Positions 35,853-47,259 of a stretch of DNA of 64,000 nucleotides are shown here, piece by piece. The position numbers and the translations under genes are program-made. Numbering within the stretch: position 1 is the stretch's first letter; each line of letters begins with the position of its first letter. This DNA comes from Psilocybe cubensis (lineage: Eukaryota): assembly GCA_017499595.2 (NCBI GenBank), contig CM039003.1:2108001-2172000 (forward strand), read 5' to 3'. The notes beneath the pieces are model-generated. The model saw nothing but the letters and a program-made list of their open reading frames with translations. It was not told the origin of the DNA and made no database searches.

Positions 35853-36927
35853 ATGCCGTCAGTCGCGAGTTCGACGCCGCTGGATGTTCTCCGGCTCATC
35901 TTCAGCTGTCTGCCCTCGCCGGACCTCGCTGTCTGGTGCCGCGTCAACCGCACCGTCCATCCCGTCGCCAAGGAGGCTCTCTACCGCGCCCTCTATCCAT
36001 CCCGCCGCAATGTCCTCCCTCTCTGTCTCAAGCTCGCCACTGAGCCAGACATCGCCCTCCGCGTCCGCGCTTTCACCATCACCGACGACACCGTAGACAT
36101 GTTCCTCGGCGTCATCGCAGACGCCCTCCTCAAGCTCCCCCGCCTCCGCGCCCTCTTCCTCTTCATCGGCCCCATGTCCTCCTGGATCCTCCCCCGCCCC
36201 GACGCTTGTCCCTTCCAGCTCCACGAGTTCTCCACCAGCTTCTTCTTCGACGAGCCTCTCCAGTCTTTCCTCCAGTCCCAGCGCAGTCTCCTCCACCTCC
36301 GCGTCTCTGCCCCCCGCGATCTCTCCCTCTCGCGCGCCATCCGCCCGCCCATGTTCCCCAACCTCGTCTCCATAGCCGCTCCCATGTCCGTCGTCGAGGC
36401 AGTCATCCCCGGCCGCCCCGTCCGCAATGTCACTTCCTATCACTTTAATCACCATCCCCCGTCTGTTTCCTGCTTTGCCCGCTCAACATCGCCCGCGGGT
36501 GTCCAGCGCCTCATGCTCAACTTTACTTATCTCCAGACTCTTGCGCCTGACCAGCTCGCTGAATTCACTCCCAATCTCAAGTCATTCACTATAGACGCAG
36601 ATGCCATCAAGCCAGATGACTACGAGGTGCGTCTGCCACCACCATTCATCCTCAAAACTCACTCATTCCCTCTAGATGGTAGACCAGTTAACTGAGTGGA
36701 TAGAAGAGTATCTGTCATACGCAAAACATTTAAATTGTCTCATCATCCGCTTTTATCCCGCACTATCCAGTGTCCCCTGTCAAGAGATTGACTTTTCTGA
36801 TATGATCACAAGTATCTTTGCTGCCTCGGTCCATCTCGAGCATGTTATCGTACTATTTAACGGCGTCAAGGCAAAATATGTCTGTAGACAACCACCAGGC
36901 CAAGATTGGTATATTGTCAACGATTAA
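35853..36927 (+). CDS. F-box domain protein
   Basis: N-terminal PLDVLRLIFSCLPSPDLAVWCRVNR...AKEALYR followed by an LRR-like region; one intron. Confidence 0.75.
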
Positions 36928-36964
36928 TCAACTTTTTTCTTGCAAAATAAAGTGTATGACCCTA

Positions 36965-37468
36965 TCAATCCGTGGAGTATACCGTCATAGTAACTTTTAA
37001 ATCTTTCAAAACAGCCTCAGTCTCTTGCCATGGAACACCAAATTTGCCAGAGTTGAACCGACTACAAGACGTTAGCAAGCCACCCCTCTCGAGATGATTC
37101 TACACACACCAAGCATGCAACGGCTTATTCGACACATTCTTTTCCAGCAAATCCATCACCGCCGCCCTTGTCGCAGCCAGAATCTGCGCCGGCGCATCCT
37201 TCCGGCGCCCATACGCGCGCGATGTGAACAGGCACGCGATATCATGCGCGTCGTCTCCCGGAATCAGCAGACACGTCCCGACGAGCGACTCCCCGTGCGC
37301 CTGGCAGTGCGCGCGGTACACGCCGTACGCCGCCGGATAGATATCGCGGAACGCAAGTGCGATCCCGCTGCCCCATGCACCGTGCGTGTTGCATGCGTGC
37401 ACGAGGATGGTACCTGCAGGCGCGCTGAAGAGGGAGGCTTTGATGTGCGAGATGGTGTTGGTGCCCAT
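36965..37468 (-). CDS. POA1: Macro-domain ADP-ribose 1''-phosphate phosphatase (Poa1-like)
   Basis: LVHACNTHGAWGSGIALAF, IACLFTSRAYG and second exon RFNSGKFGVPWQET. Confidence 0.88.
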
Positions 37469-38099
37469 GTCGTGTTAGGATGCCTCGCTCGAGTCACAGT
37501 GTCGTGTGCAAGGTGGCAAGGCCTGCCCTAAGGCTTTGATGGCGTCTTGGGCCGGACTGAACGATCCTACGTCGTGGCTGGTGAGTTCTGCACCTCTAGA
37601 TGGCTTATGGCTCAACTTACATAACTTGACGATAACAGATGTTCTTGAATACGTATACATCTAGTCGTGGTTAATCAAGCTGCCTCCAAACTACGTAGCG
37701 GCTTCTCTCGCTTTGTGTAGGACACGGTTTGCTTCTGGTTCTCGTTAATCAATAGGATGATATTCGTTTCTTGCTCTTTGCTCTTTGCTTGATCGCGTTT
37801 GATCCTTCTAGATCAGAGCATGCCCTGGCCCTTCTGAGTTCTCTACGTACGTACGCGTGACTCCTGCTTCAAGCTTTGGATTTGAGGGTGCATTCATTCA
37901 TTCATTTAAGCCTTCATTCCCATCAAACACGTACCGGTTTTAACACTTCTCTTCAAGAATAGACAGACCGTGTGCCAAAGTCGTCCATCGTCTACCGTCC
38001 CTATCAGCTGGCCTGCCCTAAGGTCTCCCAATCGTTGGCGCCTATTTAACACCCACCCCCCATCTCTCTCTGCTTTCTCCTTGGACTACGGTGTAAGCA

Positions 38100-39220
38100 C
38101 TGTTTCCCCTCATCGGGGCCCTCCTCGTCGTAGGTGGTACGTGACTTTTCTCTGTCTCTGTCTCTCTCTCTTCACATTGGTTAGTCGAAGCTGAACGTAA
38201 ACCTTTCGTAGGTGCTCGTAATGTTGTATTCGGTAGCGGCCAAAGCCACGACCAACACTTAAACACTGAGCAGACTGCCTACACTGAGCAGATGCCGACA
38301 CTCATAATACCACATACTGAGCAACTGCCGACATGAAGCAGATGCAGACACTACGCAACTTAGAAGGTAAGCCAACTGTCACTTATCACTTATCACCACC
38401 ACCTCTATGCACCACGGAACCTCGCGCGCTAACTTTTTCTCTGAGCAGTTTGCCAATATTTACAATAAATATTGAGCAACTGCCGACACTTAGCAACTCG
38501 GGAAGGTAAGCCTCTTCTCACTTATCTCCACCACCACTGTGCACCGCGGAACCTTGCGCGCTAACTTTTACTCTGAGCAGTTGCCGACACTTACACTTAC
38601 ACTTACATTGAGCAACTGCCGACACGAAGCAGATGCCGACACTACGCAACTCAAGGAGGTAAGCCAACTGTCACTTATCACCACTACCACTATGCACCAC
38701 GGAACCTCGCGCGCTAACTTTTCCTCTGAGCAGTTGCCAATATTTACAATAAATATTGAGCAACTGCCGACACTTAGCAACTCAGGAAGGTAAGCCGATT
38801 CTCACTTATCTCCACCACCACTGTGCACCACAGAACCTTGCGCGCCAACTTTTTTCCTCTGAGCAGTTGCAGACATTTACACTTACACTTACACCGAGCA
38901 ACTGCCGCCACGAAGCAGATGCCGACACTACGCAACTCAAGGAGGTAAGCCAACTGTCACTTATCATCACTATGCACCACGGAACCTCGCGCGCTAACTT
39001 TTCCTTTCAGCAGTTGCCGACATTTAGTAAACACTAAATACTGAGCAGACTGCCTACACTGAGCAGCTGCCAAGATTTATCAGCTCAAAAATGTAAGCCA
39101 TCTCCCACCCCTCACCACCACCACCGCTGCCACTATGCACCACGGAACCTCGCACGCTAACCTTTTTCCCTCTCCCCTCTCACCCAGTGGCAACCCAATT
39201 TCGGGCAGAAATCAAATAAC
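38100..39220 (+). pseudogene. Decayed small secreted-peptide gene, copy A, with amplified intron array
   Basis: TATTTAA at 38043, then (CTG)FPLIGALLV|VLVMLYSVAA, then a frameshift to TAA at 38260, followed by six repeated introns. Confidence 0.5.
38320..39187 (+). repeat. Tandem array of six exon+intron units (about 130-170 bp, alternating A/B units)
   Basis: GTAAGC donors at 38367, 38506, 38659, 38790, 38945 and 39093. Each is followed by caccacggaacctcgcgcgCTAAC-like sequence, a pyrimidine tract and CAG. Confidence 0.9.
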
Positions 39221-39645
39221 CCAGGCCACATATTACGTTCATCTCCTCCCGTACCCATCATACCTTCCACGTCATTTAGTGTATTGTCAAAACTTCCTAC
39301 TCTGACTGTGTTAGTTTTGTTTGTGTATGGGTTTTTTTTATGTGTAGGAGACGGGTTTTGGTCCTCTTGTCAATTGATCAAACTGTTTCTTGCTCTTTTT
39401 CGGGTGTGATTGGTACTTTGAGAGATATATAAGGCTGTCTGTGGTATATGTGTGTGGGCCGGTGCTCAGGCCCAGTCACTAGTGAAAAGCTACAATGTAA
39501 AAAATGCGATTGCGCTTCGTTGTGCGTTCAGTAAAATTTTGCCTCCTGCAGCAGGTAAACGTTAAAACTCGCGGGTCCTACATGCACTCTTATCCAGCAA
39601 ATCCCGCCCTGCTGCCCCATGCCGTTTTGGTAAGCCTTTCGCTAA

Positions 39646-41125
39646 ATCGCTCGAGGTAGTTACAGTATCGTGTGCGAGCTGGCAAGGCCTGCCCTAAGGC
39701 ATTGATGGCGTCTACTTGTTGCTCCCTCCTTCACTGGGCCAGACTGGTTCCCTCATCAGAACGATTCTACACCATGGGTGGTGAGTTCTGTACCTCTAAA
39801 CAGCTCAGATGGCTTAACTTACATACCCCAACGATAGCAGATGTTCTTGAAGACGTATACATTTGGTTGTGTGACTAGCGGCTTCTCTTGCGATTGCGAT
39901 TTAATGATGGCGCATGGTAACTCAATATTCTTCATCGTGTTATCGCGCTTTGTGTAGGAAACGGTTTGCTTCTATTTCTCGTCAATTAATAAGATTGGTT
40001 TCCTGCTCTTTGCTCGATATCGTGTGATCATCCTTTCAAATCAGAGCGTGCCCTGGCCCCTCTCTACATGACTCTGTGGCTTTTAGCTTTGAGGGTGTAT
40101 TCATTTAAGCTTTCATTCCGATCAAGCACGTACCGTTTTTAACTCTTCACTCTTCAAGAATAGACAGACCGTGTGCAAAGTCGTCCACTGTCAGCTGGCC
40201 TGCCCTAAGGTCCCCATCGATGGCGTCTATTTAACACCCTGCCCCCACCTCTGCTTTCTCCTTGGCCTGTGTAATACACGGTTCCCCATCCCATCGGGGC
40301 CCTCCTCGTCGTAGGTGGTACGTGACTTTGCCCTCTCTCTCTCTTCTCCCACATTGGTCAGGTCTAAACTGAACGCCAACCTTCTGTAGGTGCTCGTGGT
40401 GTTGTATTCGGTTGTGGCCTTGCCACTGCCGACACTCAGCAGCTCAGAAATGTAAGCCATCTCTCACTTATCACCACATCATCACAGAAACCTCGCGCGC
40501 TAACCTTTTCCCTCTCCCCTCTCATCCAGTGGTATCACCAATTTTCGGGCTGCATCGCACTCCGCCCTTGCCTCTACACCCGTAGACTCGGGCAGACTGC
40601 CATTCTCGTATGTTTTGGGGCCCCACACGTCGATTTCTCGCGGTGTGGGGCCCCAATCCGTCGAGCTTACCTTTCAAATCAAATAACCCAGGCCACATAC
40701 CATATATTATGTTCATCCCCTCCCTTGCCCATCATACCTTTTGCGCTGGTTAGTGTATTGTCAAGCCTCCTGCTCTGACTGTGCTAGTTTTGTTTGGGTA
40801 TCGGTTTTTTTCATGTGTAGGAGACAGGTTTTGGTCCTCTTGTCAATTGATCAAACTGTTTCTTGCTCTTTTTCTTGTGTGATTGGTACTTTGAGAGAGA
40901 GATAAGGCTGTCTGTGGTGTGTATGTGTGGTGCCAGTGCTCAGCTCAGTTCCATGTTGCCAGCCACTGGTGAAAAGTCACAATGTGCAAGAAATGTGTTT
41001 TATTGTTGTAAAAACAATTTGCTGACATGTGGGATACGAAAATTTGCATCTCCCATTGCGCATCGTTGTGCTTTCAATCAAATGTCGCCTCCTTCAGCAG
41101 GTAAACACCGCAGGTCCTACATGCG
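39646..41125. repeat. Segmental tandem duplication, copy B
   Basis: Collinear with copy A. It has one intron where A has six, and ends in the real last exon of the Lys-AA9 gene. Confidence 0.92.
40278..40686 (+). other. Candidate three-exon small secreted peptide (83 codons) lacking ATG, copy B
   Basis: Exons 40278-40310, 40390-40451 and 40530-40686 join into one open frame, (ACG)VPHPIGALLVVLVVLYSVVA-LPLPTLSSSEIG...FQIK*. TATTTAA at 40228. Confidence 0.5.
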
Positions 41126-42293
41126 CACACACACATCAGGCATGTCCAACAATCAATGGAATACAACACAGTACCTGGTGGCGTGTAGCTCGAGAGGCCG
41201 AATAGCGACGTTACGATACCCGGAGAGGTGGCTGGTAGACAACCAATAAGCATAAACATGGAAGGGTTTTTCGATGAAGCTTCGACTTACGGGTGTATGC
41301 GCCTGGGAAGCTAACAGTCGCAGGAGTTTTAGGCGACGAAGAGCCAGTTACGGAAATTTGAGCACAGCTCATCTGTTTAAGTGGTAACGTTATATCTCCC
41401 GAACAATTATAAACAAGAAATTTCCAAGACGTACATAGAACTGAGCGCCTGGGTATGATGTCGCAGCCTGCAGCGCTATAGTCAAAAATCTGATTTAAGA
41501 AACATATTAACGATGGAAAGATGGAGAAGGATTCTTACCAATCGCTTCGGCACGGAAGAGGTATTGCCCAGACGCGATGCAAGTTGGAACAGTGAATGTG
41601 GCGTTACCGCCGTTCACAAAAAGAACATCCGAGCCCCATTGGCCGGTGGTAGCGTTGTATCCAATCTGACCGATCTTAAACCACTTGAGGCCTATCATCA
41701 CATCCTTGAATTTCGGAACGTGGCAGCCTCTCTGTTACGAGTCGATAACATACCTGTCACCGTGGATTGGGTGGCAGACGGAACCTCCGCCCTGAATGCA
41801 GAGTTAAATTGTTAATTAAATTAAACCAGCGATTTTTTTTTTTTGCTTACAGGTAGGCTAGGATTGGCCCTTTGTTGGTGGGGTCAATAGGGTCTGAAGG
41901 GTCAGGGCCGGTGTATCCAGCAGAGGTTCTGTGGAATTGCGCCGTGATCCTGTCACCGGCGTTGACAGGGATGACCACATCAGAAACGGGCTGGATGAAG
42001 TTGGTGTTGCATATTATGTTGTTAGACGTCAAATCTGTTATTGCCTTTGAATGGGAGACGTCAGCTAGGCCGTCCTCGCATATGCATAAAAGATGAAACA
42101 GACAGAGTTTGAAGTTGGAACTCGAACACCGACGCCATGACCTTGATCGATACCGTTAACAGCGACAGCCTAAAGAAGTGCAATTTGAGCCTTTGACAAC
42201 AGAAAAGACGGAAGTGGTATATACCGAGAAAACAGTTTTAGCGCTTACAGCGCATGCACCCACAATAAGAGATAACAAAGTGACCGACAGCAT
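41094..42293 (-). CDS. AA9 LPMO-like protein lacking the histidine brace (N-terminal Lys variant), no CBM
   Basis: Signal [18 protein letters not shown] then KTVFS, followed by [58 protein letters not shown] and PPGPAVFTC*. Confidence 0.9.
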
Positions 42294-43320
42294 GTTTGGG
42301 AGAGTCGGGACTGGTAACTTGAAATTTGTGGCCTAGTAGCTGACTCAGTCCTGTCGTTTTTAAACCTGATAACCACGGGTCGCTGTTAAAACGCGACTAG
42401 AAGCACATGGAGGTTGACTTTACGAATTCGAACTACTCTATAAGAAGCATGTTAAGTCGCGTGGTTTTGTCATGCCACTTGGAGTGATTTACCTTTTATG
42501 TTGTAAAATTTTTCATGCGAGGGTTTCAACGACATAACCAGAAGAGCAGCCGCCATTCGAAGTCTGGTCAGGGGACCACAAAGTTAGGTCAGTATCTGTG
42601 CCATGAGACAAGGGATACTCACTGAAAGCGAGATTTCAGCGAAGAAAGGGAGGACGATGCCTTTCTAGTGTCATCGTTGCAAAGCAATAGAATCAAGCTC
42701 GGCGTTGGCTATCAGTAGCGTTTGGGAAACGGTTGATCGGTATTTCAGAAAAGGAAATATATGGGGTGACACGACACGGTATAGTTGATTGTTGGGATTG
42801 AAAGATAGCCAAAATAGGCCAAAGTTCTATGGACGAAGTTCGGCGCTAAAACCTCGAAAGGTAAGGCTGGCTGCTTGAGCGCTGTTTGTGGTTAATACTA
42901 CTTGAGAAATGATAAAGTAGACATACCTAAACGTAATAGATATTGAAACAGGGAAAATAAACTGGAGCAAACGAAATTATCACAAAACCATCGTTGTAGC
43001 TTTGGACAAACCTTGGACAAACCTGAGAACATCTTGACATTACGTCACTATATCCCGGCCCGCAGGACCGCTGTTTGCCCCGGTTTACCGATCTTTGCCA
43101 CATTGCTATTAATGGCTATTTTTAGGTACGAGAGTCTCTTGGCTTTCTCTCCGAAAACTTGGACGACAAATACGATGAGTTACAAGAGGCCTAAAATACG
43201 CTGAATTTTATGGAATATAAAACATGATTTTATATGATAGAATCTCTGGATGATATACATGATATCGATGACTCGAAGTGAATGAAAGAGTTCATAAAGG
43301 TGGATGGGCCAAGATTTATC

Positions 43321-44779
43321 TTAAAGGCATTGGCTGTACTGATTTGACCAATAATGTCAGCGCCCTTCATGATATTAAATGTGATAGTACATACATAATC
43401 ATTAGATTTCACGCATGTGTATGGAGAAGCACAAGTAGTGGCGCCGGTGTATCTATTCGAATGTCATTTTTATCAACAATGTCCTCTACAGCTTTCAAGT
43501 TAATTCTTACCCAATTCCACCACACTGTCCATAATGTGCCACGGTTGCTCCAGATGATGTAGGAGTGGAGCTAGAAGCTGGAGCAGTTGATGTGGGAGAG
43601 GAGGCTACCGTCGTTGATGAACTAGGGGCCGGTGAACTTCCACTGCTCCCACTGCAGCTGAACACAGAGGGTCCTATTGGCTAATTAGACATCATAACGC
43701 GTGATGAAAATATAAACATACCTGGAATTGTGTAGGACTTCAAGTTGTTGTAAATGTTGACAGTAATTCCAGGGTCACTTCCTACATTAGCGTAAATTAG
43801 CATTTCTGTGTTAATTCATCAATGATGGTATGTGTTTCTTACCTTTGTAAGCGCCCGGGAAGCTTACGGTTGCCGGTGACGTACTTCCGCCTCCGGTTAT
43901 TTGGATCTGAGCGCATTCCATCTAATATCAACGGAGTCAATGGGGAAAGAAATTTGGAAAGAAATTAGAAAATACAACAAACATATAGCTGAGCACCTGG
44001 ATACGATTCGGCAGCATGCAAAGCTGCAAAAAGAGATACTTCAGCATATCCATCAATAAAAAGTTCGCAACACATACCGATAAGCTCAACACGAAGCAAG
44101 TATTGTCCTGGCGCAATGCAGCTTGGAATCGAAAAGCTGACCTTTCCTTGATTGGAGATAAGTTTGTCCACTGCCCAGCTTCCACTGCTATCAAGACCGT
44201 CATGGTAAATTTTGAACCAATTCAAACCGGTGACAGTGCTCTGTGTAGCGTTGTTAACCTTTGCCCTTTATGCAGTTTAGCTTATATTAGCACATTGTTT
44301 GGGAAAATGAAAACTGACAAGTATGCAAGGATGGGGCCTTTGTGTGAAGGATCGATGGGGTCAGCTGGGTCATTTGTTCCGGCGCTAGTGAGCGTGTGGT
44401 GCCATTCAGCGGTGACTTGAGCTCCTGCAGGTACCGGAATAACTGTCGTTGAAACAGGCTGGTGGTACGGGTTGATCCCTCCATTGCAAATCAAATCATT
44501 CGAAGTAACATCTGTAATAGGCTGCCATAAATCGAATCAACACTTGCCAGCGGTACTACTGAGTAACGGGTTACATACACCATCGTAATCGGGTACACGA
44601 ATACCGTTTATGTGTCCTTGAGAAACGCCATTGACCCAAAGTGTCTAGCAATGGCGACTAAGTTAGCAAGGTAGTCCTTTAGCCCTGCGATAAATTGTTC
44701 ATATTACCTGGAAAATAGTGTGAGCGGAGGCAGAGTTTGCAATCAAAAAAACAGTTGCTATTGAGTTGGAGAGCTTCAT
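43321..44779 (-). CDS. AA9 lytic polysaccharide monooxygenase with C-terminal CBM1
   Basis: Signal [19 protein letters not shown] then HTIFQ (His1), [22 protein letters not shown] linker, CBM1 [32 protein letters not shown]. Confidence 0.95.
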
Positions 44780-45799
44780 CTTTGCTTGTAGCGTAACTTC
44801 GATAGACCTTTTCCGTCTCTTCTTTATATACACATCCACTCAGGCACCTTAAAGATCGAATCTGTAGTCGAAACACATAAAACTTAATGACTATGGGTCA
44901 GTTCCTATAAATAACTCAATATCTAAAAATACGACTCGAGATATCACAGGACGAAGCGAATACTAACATCATTCTACGTGAATTATGAGTGTAAAATAAC
45001 CAAGACTCGTAAAAAACGCGTGAAATTCGGAGCATTAAAGGTATGTAATTTCCTGACTGGTGGAAAACAGGGAGTACCGGCCATGTGCTTAGCAAGTCCA
45101 TTCGCTTCATACGACCATGTTCATCCGTTAAGTATCCGATATTTGATCCATTGGTGTCGATTGGTTGAAGGTATTAGACTTTATAGGATTTCGCTCATCG
45201 GAAGTAATAAATATGCCCATTAGCACCGAAGCTTCATTCCTTGGCAAATTTAAGGAGTGCTTAACTAGGCTTAACTGCGCTTAAATTGGAAGAATGTGTG
45301 CAGGTTTTCCTTGGGTACCCCGCGGGGTCGAGCAGGCGTGCTTACCTCGTGAGAGCTGGTGAGGTCATTGCAATGTTCATCATCATATGATAAACAAAGA
45401 CTTAATAAGAAGTACGCTGCCCAGAACATCGAGATCGCAAACAACCGGGATTTATCCTGATTTACAGCGCGATGCCGTGAAATACGCGGTGTACAGTCTT
45501 GTACAGTGAGCAAGTACGGAGAAGAGCCGACCGGATCTCGCAAAGATTTTCAATGACAGATCGTTTATTATCTTAAAAGCTTGACAGCTTGATGCGGGTG
45601 CGAAGTAGATGAGAAACTTGAAGAGACCAATGGCAGAGAAAGCGTTTAAAACCTTTGGTTTCTGTTGAGGACGACGACTTGGATTGATAAAAGAAGTCCC
45701 GGATTCGAGAGAGACAGAATAATGCAATTTTGTGTTGTAAAATATAATGTATGGTAGAATAGTTAGAAGAAGTCGAAAGTAGCAAATGTACTTTAGATC

Positions 45800-47259
45800 T
45801 TAGCGACATTGACTGTACTGTTGACAGTCTCAGTAAAAATTTTAAATTTCCATCCAAGGTCTAGAAACTTACATAGTCGTTAGATTTCACGCAAGTGTAA
45901 GGTGCCTTGCATGATGTGGCTCCGGTATAGCTAAAGAGTTCGGTAAGAAATAATATAGTAGATTATGTGACAGTAGAAGCTTACCCTATGCCGCCACATT
46001 GTCCCCATTGATCAACAGTCCCAGACGGTCCCGGATTTGCAGACGTTGGGGTAGTAGTGCTCGAAACAGTAGTTCTAGATGTTGGGGTTGAAGAAACCGA
46101 GGTTACTGGGTTTGGGTTTGGGTTACCACCGCTGCAGGTGAAGACGGATGGCCCTAAAGTTTCATTATCGATACATAAACGAATGCGCGATGATATTTTT
46201 TTGTAGCTGACCTGGGATTGTATATGAAGTAGCACCGGTATACAAGTTGAATCTGATTCCAGGGTCGCTTCCTGAAAAGAACACGTTAGCAAATTTTAAA
46301 CGAAGACAAAAACAATACTTACCTGAGTATGCGCCAGGGAAGCTGACAGTGGCAGGAGACGTGTTTCCGCCTCCAGTGATCTCGAGTTGAGCGCATTCCA
46401 TCTAAGAAGGAAGATGAAATACTGTTTGATACATTGTTTAAAACGACATACGTAAAGTTGAGCACCAGGGTAACTCGACGCGGCGTGAAGTGCTATTGAA
46501 ATCAAAAGTCAGATTGGTTCTAGTCGGCGAGTAAGTTGAGATATCCAACCTATCAGTTCAACACGAAGAAGATATTGTCCAGCGGGGATACAGTCAGGAA
46601 TGGTAAAGGTAACCTTGCCCTGATTTTTTATAAGTCTTTCCACTGCCCAGCCATTTGAGTCAAGGCCATCATGATAGATCTTGAACCATTTCAATCCCGT
46701 GACGTCAGATTGGGTAGCTGAAGGGACTTGTGCACTGAAGAAAGAGAAGAATGATGAAACAGGTCTGCAGCCTCATGAAAACTGGACACTTACAGGTATG
46801 CAAGAACTGGGCCATTGTGTGAAGGGTCGATTGGGTCAGAATGATCACCAGTTTTGCTGGTAAGAGTGTAGTGAAACTGGGCGCTAACTTGGCTGCCAGC
46901 GGCCACCTTGATGACAGTAGTGGACACAGGAGTACGGTATGGATTGATTCCACCGTTGCAGATGACGTCCTTCGACGTGACATCAGTGATTGGCTACAGA
47001 GTAAGATGCGTCAAAAAGAGTCGCACAACCAAAGAAAATTGGTGGAAAATTTACGCCGTTGTATTCAGGCACTCGAATGCCGTTGAATCGCCCTTGCGAT
47101 ACCCCGTTGACATACAATTCCTATATAATAGTAAGTGGATTAAAATGACATACTATATTTCTTGAGTCACTTTTCACATACCTGGAAAATAGTATGGCCT
47201 GAGACGCCGCCAATCGAAAACAGGAGAGCTGTGAGAGCTAGCAACTTGGAGATGGCCAT
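45800..47259 (-). CDS. AA9 lytic polysaccharide monooxygenase with C-terminal CBM1
   Basis: Signal [21 protein letters not shown] then HTIFQ (His1), [19 protein letters not shown], linker, CBM1 [32 protein letters not shown]. Confidence 0.95.

Follow-up and report, generated by a model that had tools for sequence, protein, structure and literature searches.

A tandem array of introns with apparently exon-derived acceptors in a putative non-coding RNA gene of Psilocybe cubensis

How does a gene come to hold several near-identical introns one after the other? The question is raised by a 64,000-nucleotide stretch of Psilocybe cubensis contig CM039003.1 (hereafter the window), in which the original prediction saw one spliceosomal intron multiplied into six by tandem duplication. 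The locus concerned (37.5-41.1 kb) is flanked by a macro-domain gene on one side and an AA9 gene on the other, each transcribed from the minus strand. We think it likely that the locus consists of two tandem copies, A and B, of an RNA polymerase II gene for an abundant, spliced and folded RNA, in which a single founding duplication would have created a chimeric intron that was afterwards propagated.

The coordinates of the features are given in Table 1. It was found that all seven introns (six in copy A, one in copy B) lie exactly at the predicted positions, begin with GTAAGC and finish with CAG, and that the branch site is GCTAAC in all of them except intron 4, which does have the mutated form GCCAAC. 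A donor-branch-acceptor pattern run over both strands of the window gave six matches, every one in this array, and the intron core, allowing up to two mismatches across the 46.6 Mb genome, gave seven, all within this locus, compared to five scattered matches for a backwards control. Because the intron core is restricted to this locus genome-wide, we regard the introns as a local array rather than as copies of a mobile intron. Tandem Repeats Finder returned a higher-order period of 284 bp over the array and a 17-nt repeat in the exon preceding it. The whole intron with its flanking exon is repeated head to tail, and the 284-bp periods are 94.6% identical.

Table 1. Features of copies A and B of the RNA locus (positions in the window).
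Feature	Positions	Strand	Remarks
Promoter-like 14-mer GGCCTGCCCTAAGG of weak unit A1, no TATTTAA behind it	37520..37533	+	Putative role
Intron of weak unit A1	37581..37638	+	Spliced joint (GT..AG) in X10 and X11
3' stem of A1, paralogue of the other units' 3' stems	37715..37776	+	Weak alone (z -0.36)
Promoter-like 14-mer of strong unit A2	38010..38023	+	Putative role
TATA-like TATTTAA, strongly transcribed units only	38043..38049	+	Putative function
Exon 1 of RNA A, no ATG	38095..38136	+	5' end approximate; homology to B exon 1
First intron of A, outside the array	38137..38211	+	One X12 contig
Exon E0	38212..38366	+	17-nt repeat in about five copies, the putative source of the new acceptor; covered in 3/3 RNA sets
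Array intron I1, chimeric 3' end (putative)	38367..38448	+	I1-type junction spliced in X10, X11 and X12
Mini-exon E1, 57 nt, 1 base longer than its twin E3	38449..38505	+	
Array intron I2, chimeric 3' end (putative)	38506..38580	+	I2-type junction spliced in 3/3 RNA sets
Mini-exon E2, 78 nt	38581..38658	+	
Array intron I3, in the extra 284-bp period	38659..38733	+	Read from the sequence
Mini-exon E3, 56 nt	38734..38789	+	Contains a 9-bp perfect inverted repeat
Array intron I4, branch site GCCAAC	38790..38866	+	Sequence-based; exon behind it without RNA cover
Mini-exon E4, 78 nt	38867..38944	+	5' half missing from 3/3 RNA sets
Array intron I5	38945..39013	+	Two acceptors, 39010 and 39013, both used
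Mini-exon E5, 82 or 79 nt	39011..39092	+	RNA joints
Intron I6, old 3' end as in B	39093..39187	+	Spliced in X10 and X12 (side 81)
Last exon of A	39188..39392	+	3' stem 39344-39392; bulk RNA cover stops near 39384
Weak unit B1	39686..40008	+	14-mer 39686-39699, predicted intron 39781-39840, 3' stem 39952-40008; trace RNA cover, no joint listed
B2 promoter and exon 1	40197..40317	+	14-mer 40197, TATTTAA 40228; RNA from 40281
First intron of B	40318..40389	+	
Exon E0 of B, repeat single and unamplified	40390..40451	+	
Single homologous intron of B	40452..40529	+	Spliced in 3/3 RNA sets
Last exon of B	40530..40865	+	Junction hairpin, B-only hairpin 40605-40665, 3' stem 40817-40865

Splicing was evaluated in four of the 16 listed sequencing runs, namely three contig sets from two studies (X10, X11 and X12) and one raw DNA run (X15). 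None of the listed runs is recorded as RNA; that the contig sets derive from RNA was a guess, and it was borne out by skipped GT..AG intervals and empty intergenic bins; these sets represent other alleles than that of the window and do not come from the sequenced strain. The X15 DNA reads, from a different sample, covered 30 of 30 bins with the intron letters present. In addition to the joints of the I1, I2, I6, A1 and B introns (Table 1), the I5-type joints used acceptor 39010 in all three RNA sets and acceptor 39013 in X10 and X11, and the joint at the first intron of A linked a B-like exon 1 to position 38212. None of these splice joints was among those listed for the X15 reads. Therefore, the exon-derived acceptors work, as their joints are seen in the RNA sets and none is listed for DNA. 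No I3- or I4-specific junction was among the joints listed for the three RNA sets, so that the proposed check by spliced junctions succeeded for introns of the I1, I2, I5 and I6 types and for the one homologous intron attributed to the sister copy B, and not for I3 and I4, which are real in the sequence with putative splicing. The mini-exons measured 57, 78, 56, 78 and 79 nt, as predicted, with the correction that the last is 82 or 79 nt because intron 5 is cut at either acceptor. A 3-nt micro-exon ahead of the first intron was rejected, as exon 1 continues through.

Comparison of the intron ends indicates that introns 1 to 5 are chimeric, with a donor and branch point that appear to come from the old intron and an acceptor that appears to come from the 17-nt exon repeat. 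The distance from the branch A to the intron end is 26-27 nt in I6 and B, and 16 nt in I1, I2, I3 and I5; in I4 it is 18 nt, with a longer T run. From donor to branch point the chimeric introns are homologous to I6 and B, and the sequence that follows the shortened pyrimidine tract in I1-I5 is that of the exon repeat. The end of I6 is common to B and that of I1-I5 differs, in line with the claim that only the last copy keeps the original 3' end, and the slight difference between the fifth intron end and the first four was seen as well. There are five exact copies of the exon motif in the genome, all at this locus, four of them exonic and one across the I2 acceptor (38575-38590). The motif also occurs in E0, and once in B, at positions that precede any such acceptor, and is therefore native to the exon. 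Both sources, the parent intron (I6/B) and the exon repeat, are thus adjacent to the array. In copy B, the exon motif and the end of the intron have a few letters in common, which could guide a template switch. The use of these acceptors was observed in RNA, and their origin from the exon motif is our reading of the alignment.

The original prediction regarded A and B as a natural before/after pair, and this is unproven. Copies A and B differ at 130 of 1001 aligned sites (13%), and the oldest split among the intron copies, that between odd- and even-numbered introns, amounts to 9 of 60 sites (15%) and is statistically indistinguishable from it (P = 0.69); the intron tree was without any starred branch. 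No outgroup was found by a metagenome scan with the promoter pattern, which gave one chance-level match in a bacterial-type contig that was otherwise unlike the locus, and paralogue B is the sole comparator. Divergence between the two 284-bp periods, with 15 differences in 278 sites (5.4%), is lower than that between A and B (P = 0.0002). As this doubling is younger than the A/B split, the loss of all five introns in B is unlikely, and B may have lost one or two. An unlikely alternative, although one to be kept in mind, is that B is not ancestral: two or three array introns would have existed at the A/B split, and B would have collapsed to one by unequal crossing-over, with the gain itself still real. 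This would account for an odd/even split as deep as that between A and B, and the sequence of B does correspond to the first part of E0 fused to the last part of E5 and I6, but either history gives that arrangement. The amplified 17-mer has left no trace in B, where TGAGCA occurs 0 times in the mature RNA compared to 8 times in A, and such a collapse could not have extended to all five introns, given the young 284-bp doubling.

The array belongs to an older repetitive structure, in which copies A and B each comprise two older paralogous units (A1 and A2; B1 and B2), two of them strong (A2 and B2) and two weak (A1 and B1). The 14-mer opens all four units, which hold its only four exact copies in the genome, and a related 3' stem closes all four. 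TATTTAA follows the 14-mer only in A2 and B2; the comparison of weak with strong units therefore offers a natural test of the TATA-like box. In the weak units (37500-37800 and 39680-40030) the 14-mer, a single intron and the 3' stem persist without TATTTAA, and the depth of these units in X10 is hundreds of times lower. The 14-mer contains CCCTAA, similar to the Tbf1 site in the promoters of yeast snoRNA genes, and this serves as a lead only. Tbf1 has been linked to snoRNA genes (in part of PMC9272169). The genome also has 11 copies of the 14-mer with one mismatch and one extra stem match, which were set aside, as none of the 12 loci showed extended likeness. Two of these one-mismatch copies (L011 and L012; G000:C6, ~2.75 Mb) lie 20 kb apart in opposite orientation and similar surroundings, and are probably parts of a duplicated mobile element. 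RNA contigs run without a gap over 37367-37579 from the macro-domain gene (minus strand) into A1, so that the divergent 5' ends seem to overlap.

The spliced RNA is about 760 nt long for A and about 450 nt for B, with 3-8 exons. In X10 and X11 its contigs are ~44-73 times as deep as those of the neighbouring macro-domain gene, contig depth being a poor measure of expression, and bulk RNA cover of B stops near 40856. There is no ATG in exon 1, and the longest closed ATG frames, of 19 aa in A and 47 aa in B, do not exceed those of shuffles; one-base and 7-base indels that break the frame separate the two copies. The RNA thus exceeds 200 nt, is transcribed and has no conserved reading frame, as expected of a long non-coding RNA. 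We infer that it is non-coding, and the suggestion of a multi-intron non-coding RNA has held up to this extent, with splicing directly seen. An Rfam search of 36900-41800 with E up to 5 gave four weak matches, all far under the cut-off (the best 18.8 bits against 95.5), and a search of the last exon of B with E up to 10 also gave four weak matches, all far under the cut-off. As regards a snoRNA host, there was no Rfam match near cut-off and the array introns are unfolded, although a family outside Rfam could escape such a search. An SRP RNA was rejected because the RNA is spliced and has internal runs of 5-8 T; basidiomycete SRP RNA is described, in part of PMC4605306, as an intronless polymerase III transcript that ends at a U run. 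The Rfam fungal SRP model found zero matches anywhere in the genome, and that search is therefore uninformative. An exact protein look-up of three short frames matched none, which says little, and no description of this RNA or of a like case was found in a literature search of mostly open-access papers.

The predicted folds bear on what the RNA may do. A hairpin spans the last exon junction in both copies (A, 39083-39092 with 39188-39206; B, 40439-40451 with 40530-40553), with z values of -6.8 (0 of 500 shuffles) and -3.5 (1 of 500), respectively; its core pairs have probabilities of 0.8-1.0 when the whole RNA is folded. Smaller hairpins are predicted across the new junctions: four of the five fold better than ~97% of shuffles and J2 is unremarkable (47/500), this signal being in part that of a hairpin inside E1, E3 or E5. 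The structure of the first junctions and of the weak-unit junctions is unremarkable. In the 3' stem, 11 of 12 pairs are kept in all four units, and changes are one-sided, with 0 of 12 double-sided. The strong hairpin confined to B has a z value of -5.85 and is kept in mature RNA; it was rejected as an intron, since it is present there without differences, and as a mobile element, since it has a single copy in the genome. The array introns (38367-38448; 40452-40529) are unusually unfolded, 200 of 200 shuffles folding at least as well. For spliced A, the folding predicts that one exon repeat copy (38269-38283) is paired with the first exon junction (38129-38136, 38212-38217), to which the exon repeat is nearly complementary.

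Our guess as to function, in which we have middling confidence, is that the RNA is structured and acts as a protein-binding scaffold or decoy, its ends being fixed and its middle free. We consider it unlikely, in comparison, that it is the neutral by-product of a relic gene with a strong promoter, spliced because its splice signals persist, the hairpins having arisen from DNA template switching. Such an origin would be in keeping with the lack of relatives in the metagenome scan and with the free divergence of the middle between A and B; moreover, the motif as found in mid-exon is the reverse complement of its form at the acceptor, and there is a perfect inverted repeat in E1/E3, both of which template switching would produce. 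The predicted array hairpins fit both selection on the RNA fold and DNA template switching. It is the last-junction hairpin that favours selection on RNA folding, because in DNA it is split by an intron of 78-95 nt and it is whole only in spliced RNA. A by-product also sits poorly with the persistence of the 14-mer and 3' stem in four diverged units, and with a depth 45-70 times that of the neighbour gene, when basidiomycete lncRNAs average under coding genes (in part of PMC6525899).

It is still less probable that the RNA is the message of a very short peptide, with a non-AUG start in exon 1 or with a 30-codon frame near the 3' end. An open hydrophobic frame is common to A and B over exon 1 and the start of E0, but it has no ATG in exon 1, and it diverges after ~18 codons, with different stops. 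A 30-aa ATG frame is likewise common to A (39340) and B (40813), but it lies behind many ATGs in A and mostly beyond the bulk RNA cover. The exon indels listed for the RNA alleles, of 3, 6 and 18 nt, would suit a reading frame, although those of 6 and 18 nt are repeat units, and neither of the two frames tried had a Pfam match. A pheromone or secreted peptide was rejected on the same hydrophobic frame, which is without a start codon and is not shared over its length.

We are equally doubtful that the RNA is a small-RNA precursor, the units being microRNA-like precursors cut from the conserved 3' stem with a 5' arm starting with U. The stem has 18 pairs in A2 and B2 (z -2.0 and -3.0), and the arm sequence is confined to the four units, bar one chance-level match. 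However, the weak units have only 11-14 pairs, the stem of A1 is weak, and the loop letters are as conserved as the arms, which fits a 3'-end signal; furthermore, bulk RNA cover stops on the 3' arm, and the Rfam scores given above are far under the cut-off. Also speculative, and judged improbable, is the broader proposal of a new family of abundant fungal RNAs whose fold would be completed by splicing; the number of modules might then tune how much protein or spliceosome is tied up, and four- and six-intron alleles would form a dose series.

The number of introns is not the same in every source. The RNA alleles carry four array introns, and the six-intron form was not seen spliced in the three RNA sets. 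One X12 contig has the order E0, an E3-like exon, an E2-like exon, E5 and the last exon, which amounts to four array introns, and all three RNA sets have just one E1/E3-type and one E2/E4-type exon. In each of the sets the depth of the bin 38774-38907 is exactly explained by the 14 last letters of E3, and it follows that the 5' half of E4 is without cover. Exon skipping makes up 0.5% of splicing events in Coprinopsis, as a section of PMC12230235 reports, and a shorter allele is therefore likelier than skipping. It follows from these comparisons that two of the six array introns would be allele-specific, and intron number appears to vary between strains. Therefore, the multiplication of one intron to six stands for this sequence, whereas the RNA sets have four.

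It is very unlikely that the extra 284-bp period is an assembly artefact, with two four-intron alleles written in tandem. The RNA sets with one exon of each type would agree with this, and the X15 depth over the array is ~70% of the six-intron expectation and nearer the 57% expected for four, a rough figure from a mixed sample that seems to have extra copies; moreover, four runs contain 0.95 of the words, and these runs may themselves be the source and lack independence. However, the periods differ at too many sites (15/278) to be a copied stretch, and an assembly of 46.6 Mb in 21 contigs suggests long reads that would span 0.9 kb. Such an artefact would in any case leave the chimeric origin and the four-intron form untouched. 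In X15, depth is ~2x that of the flanks over 37836-38371 and there are loose ends at 39482 and 40873; this pattern suggests that the sample has extra whole-gene copies.

How many founding events are needed can be judged from changes that the introns share. I1-I5 have a common break point, new 3' end and donor-side changes, all absent from I6 and B, so that one founding duplication followed by copying suffices; among I1, I3 and I5 there are 1-2 differences in 54-60 sites, and between I2 and I4 there are 5 in 60. The strong form of the original prediction, in which each duplication joint made its own new acceptor, is highly improbable, since the slightly different end of I5 is set against a single break point in all five introns and the shared donor-side changes. 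What remains of that proposal is that an acceptor was recruited from the exon motif at one joint. Multiplication by tandem duplication as such is borne out by the 284-bp period and the spliced joints.

The following order of events would account for these features. A strong polymerase II promoter would drive a folded non-coding RNA whose ends are fixed while its middle is free, and this freedom would have let a short repeat grow, the 17-nt exon motif first multiplying through slippage in the A line. A single duplication would then have joined the exon motif to the inside of the pyrimidine tract of the next intron at a few bases of microhomology. The upstream copy would have retained the old donor and branch point, and the CAG supplied by the repeat would have become the new acceptor, 16 nt from the branch A. 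Through unequal crossing-over, the exon-intron unit could next have multiplied until there were four array introns; the later 284-bp doubling would have brought this allele to six. Units of 56-82 nt are tolerated because no frame has to be kept.

This reading can be set beside known cases, each cited from part of the source. The closest is the potato RdRp intron of Ma, Lan and Niu (2016, PMC4974935), in which a boundary-crossing tandem duplication gave a chimeric intron with a donor from exon sequence. As there, most signals are inherited from the parent intron, one splice site comes from the exon, and RNA supports splicing, in our case in other alleles than the window's. The present case is its mirror image, the acceptor being new and the donor and branch point inherited; the host is non-coding, the intron has been amplified to four or six, and it is apparently polymorphic. 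The potato case has a species tree, whereas only paralogue B is available here. Two requirements for a proven gain are quoted in PMC4974935, an identified source and a phylogeny that clearly separates gain from loss; in the present case the source lies next to the array, and the divergence among the intron copies overlaps that between A and B. Copying of a pre-existing intron by internal duplication is known from Arabidopsis TOUCH3 and from Gao and Lynch 2009 (as cited in PMC4974935 and PMC3443670), and the head-to-tail exon-intron units resemble such multiplication, which covers four of the five extra introns; unlike in TOUCH3, the copied unit is itself a new chimeric intron. Whole-intron propagation is counted by Ma et al. 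as multiplication and not as gain (PMC4974935). We therefore describe the locus as a single gain of an intron, through the mirror form of a known type of mechanism, followed by propagation.

The tandem-duplication model of gain, to which the array was originally assigned, holds as regards the tandem duplication that creates an intron, but not in the strict form of Rogers (PMC3443670): there is no duplicated exonic AGGT for both ends, and an existing intron gives the donor and branch point. In the part of that source which tabulates gains, 188 events come under tandem duplication, and 'imprecise' gains through latent splice sites are allowed. Tandem exon duplications are common in untranslated regions, where there is no frame to keep (Ivanov and Pervouchine 2022, in part of PMC9013439); those examples are from animals and often mutually exclusive, whereas the copies here are included consecutively. 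The RNA resembles the basidiomycete lncRNAs treated in PMC6525899 in being intergenic and unconserved in sequence between distant species, but those are mostly single-exon and below the level of coding genes, whereas the present RNA, with its 3-8 exons, greatly exceeds the neighbour gene in depth. Near-identical intron copies within one genome recall fungal introner-like elements (parts of PMC4457414), but here all seven copies are in one locus, with flanking exon and undispersed. What is new is the host RNA, the last-junction hairpin in both copies and the varying intron number.

Intron gains with the source in plain view are few, and this case supplies a mirror form missing so far, in which a new acceptor from exon sequence is spliced at high depth. 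It is a clear example rather than a new principle, because the mechanism class is already established. As the array seems to vary between strains, gain and propagation could be traced within one species and rebuilt in a minigene. The locus also points to an overlooked, very abundant and folded mushroom RNA.

Two further observations concern the AA9 side of the locus. A low-level spliced transcript from the minus strand behind the AA9 gene is indicated by an X11 contig that lacks 58 nt, bounded by CT..AC, at 41115-41174. Over 41800-46800 there are two AA9-like genes, seemingly in tandem on the minus strand, one piece of which has a Pfam match.
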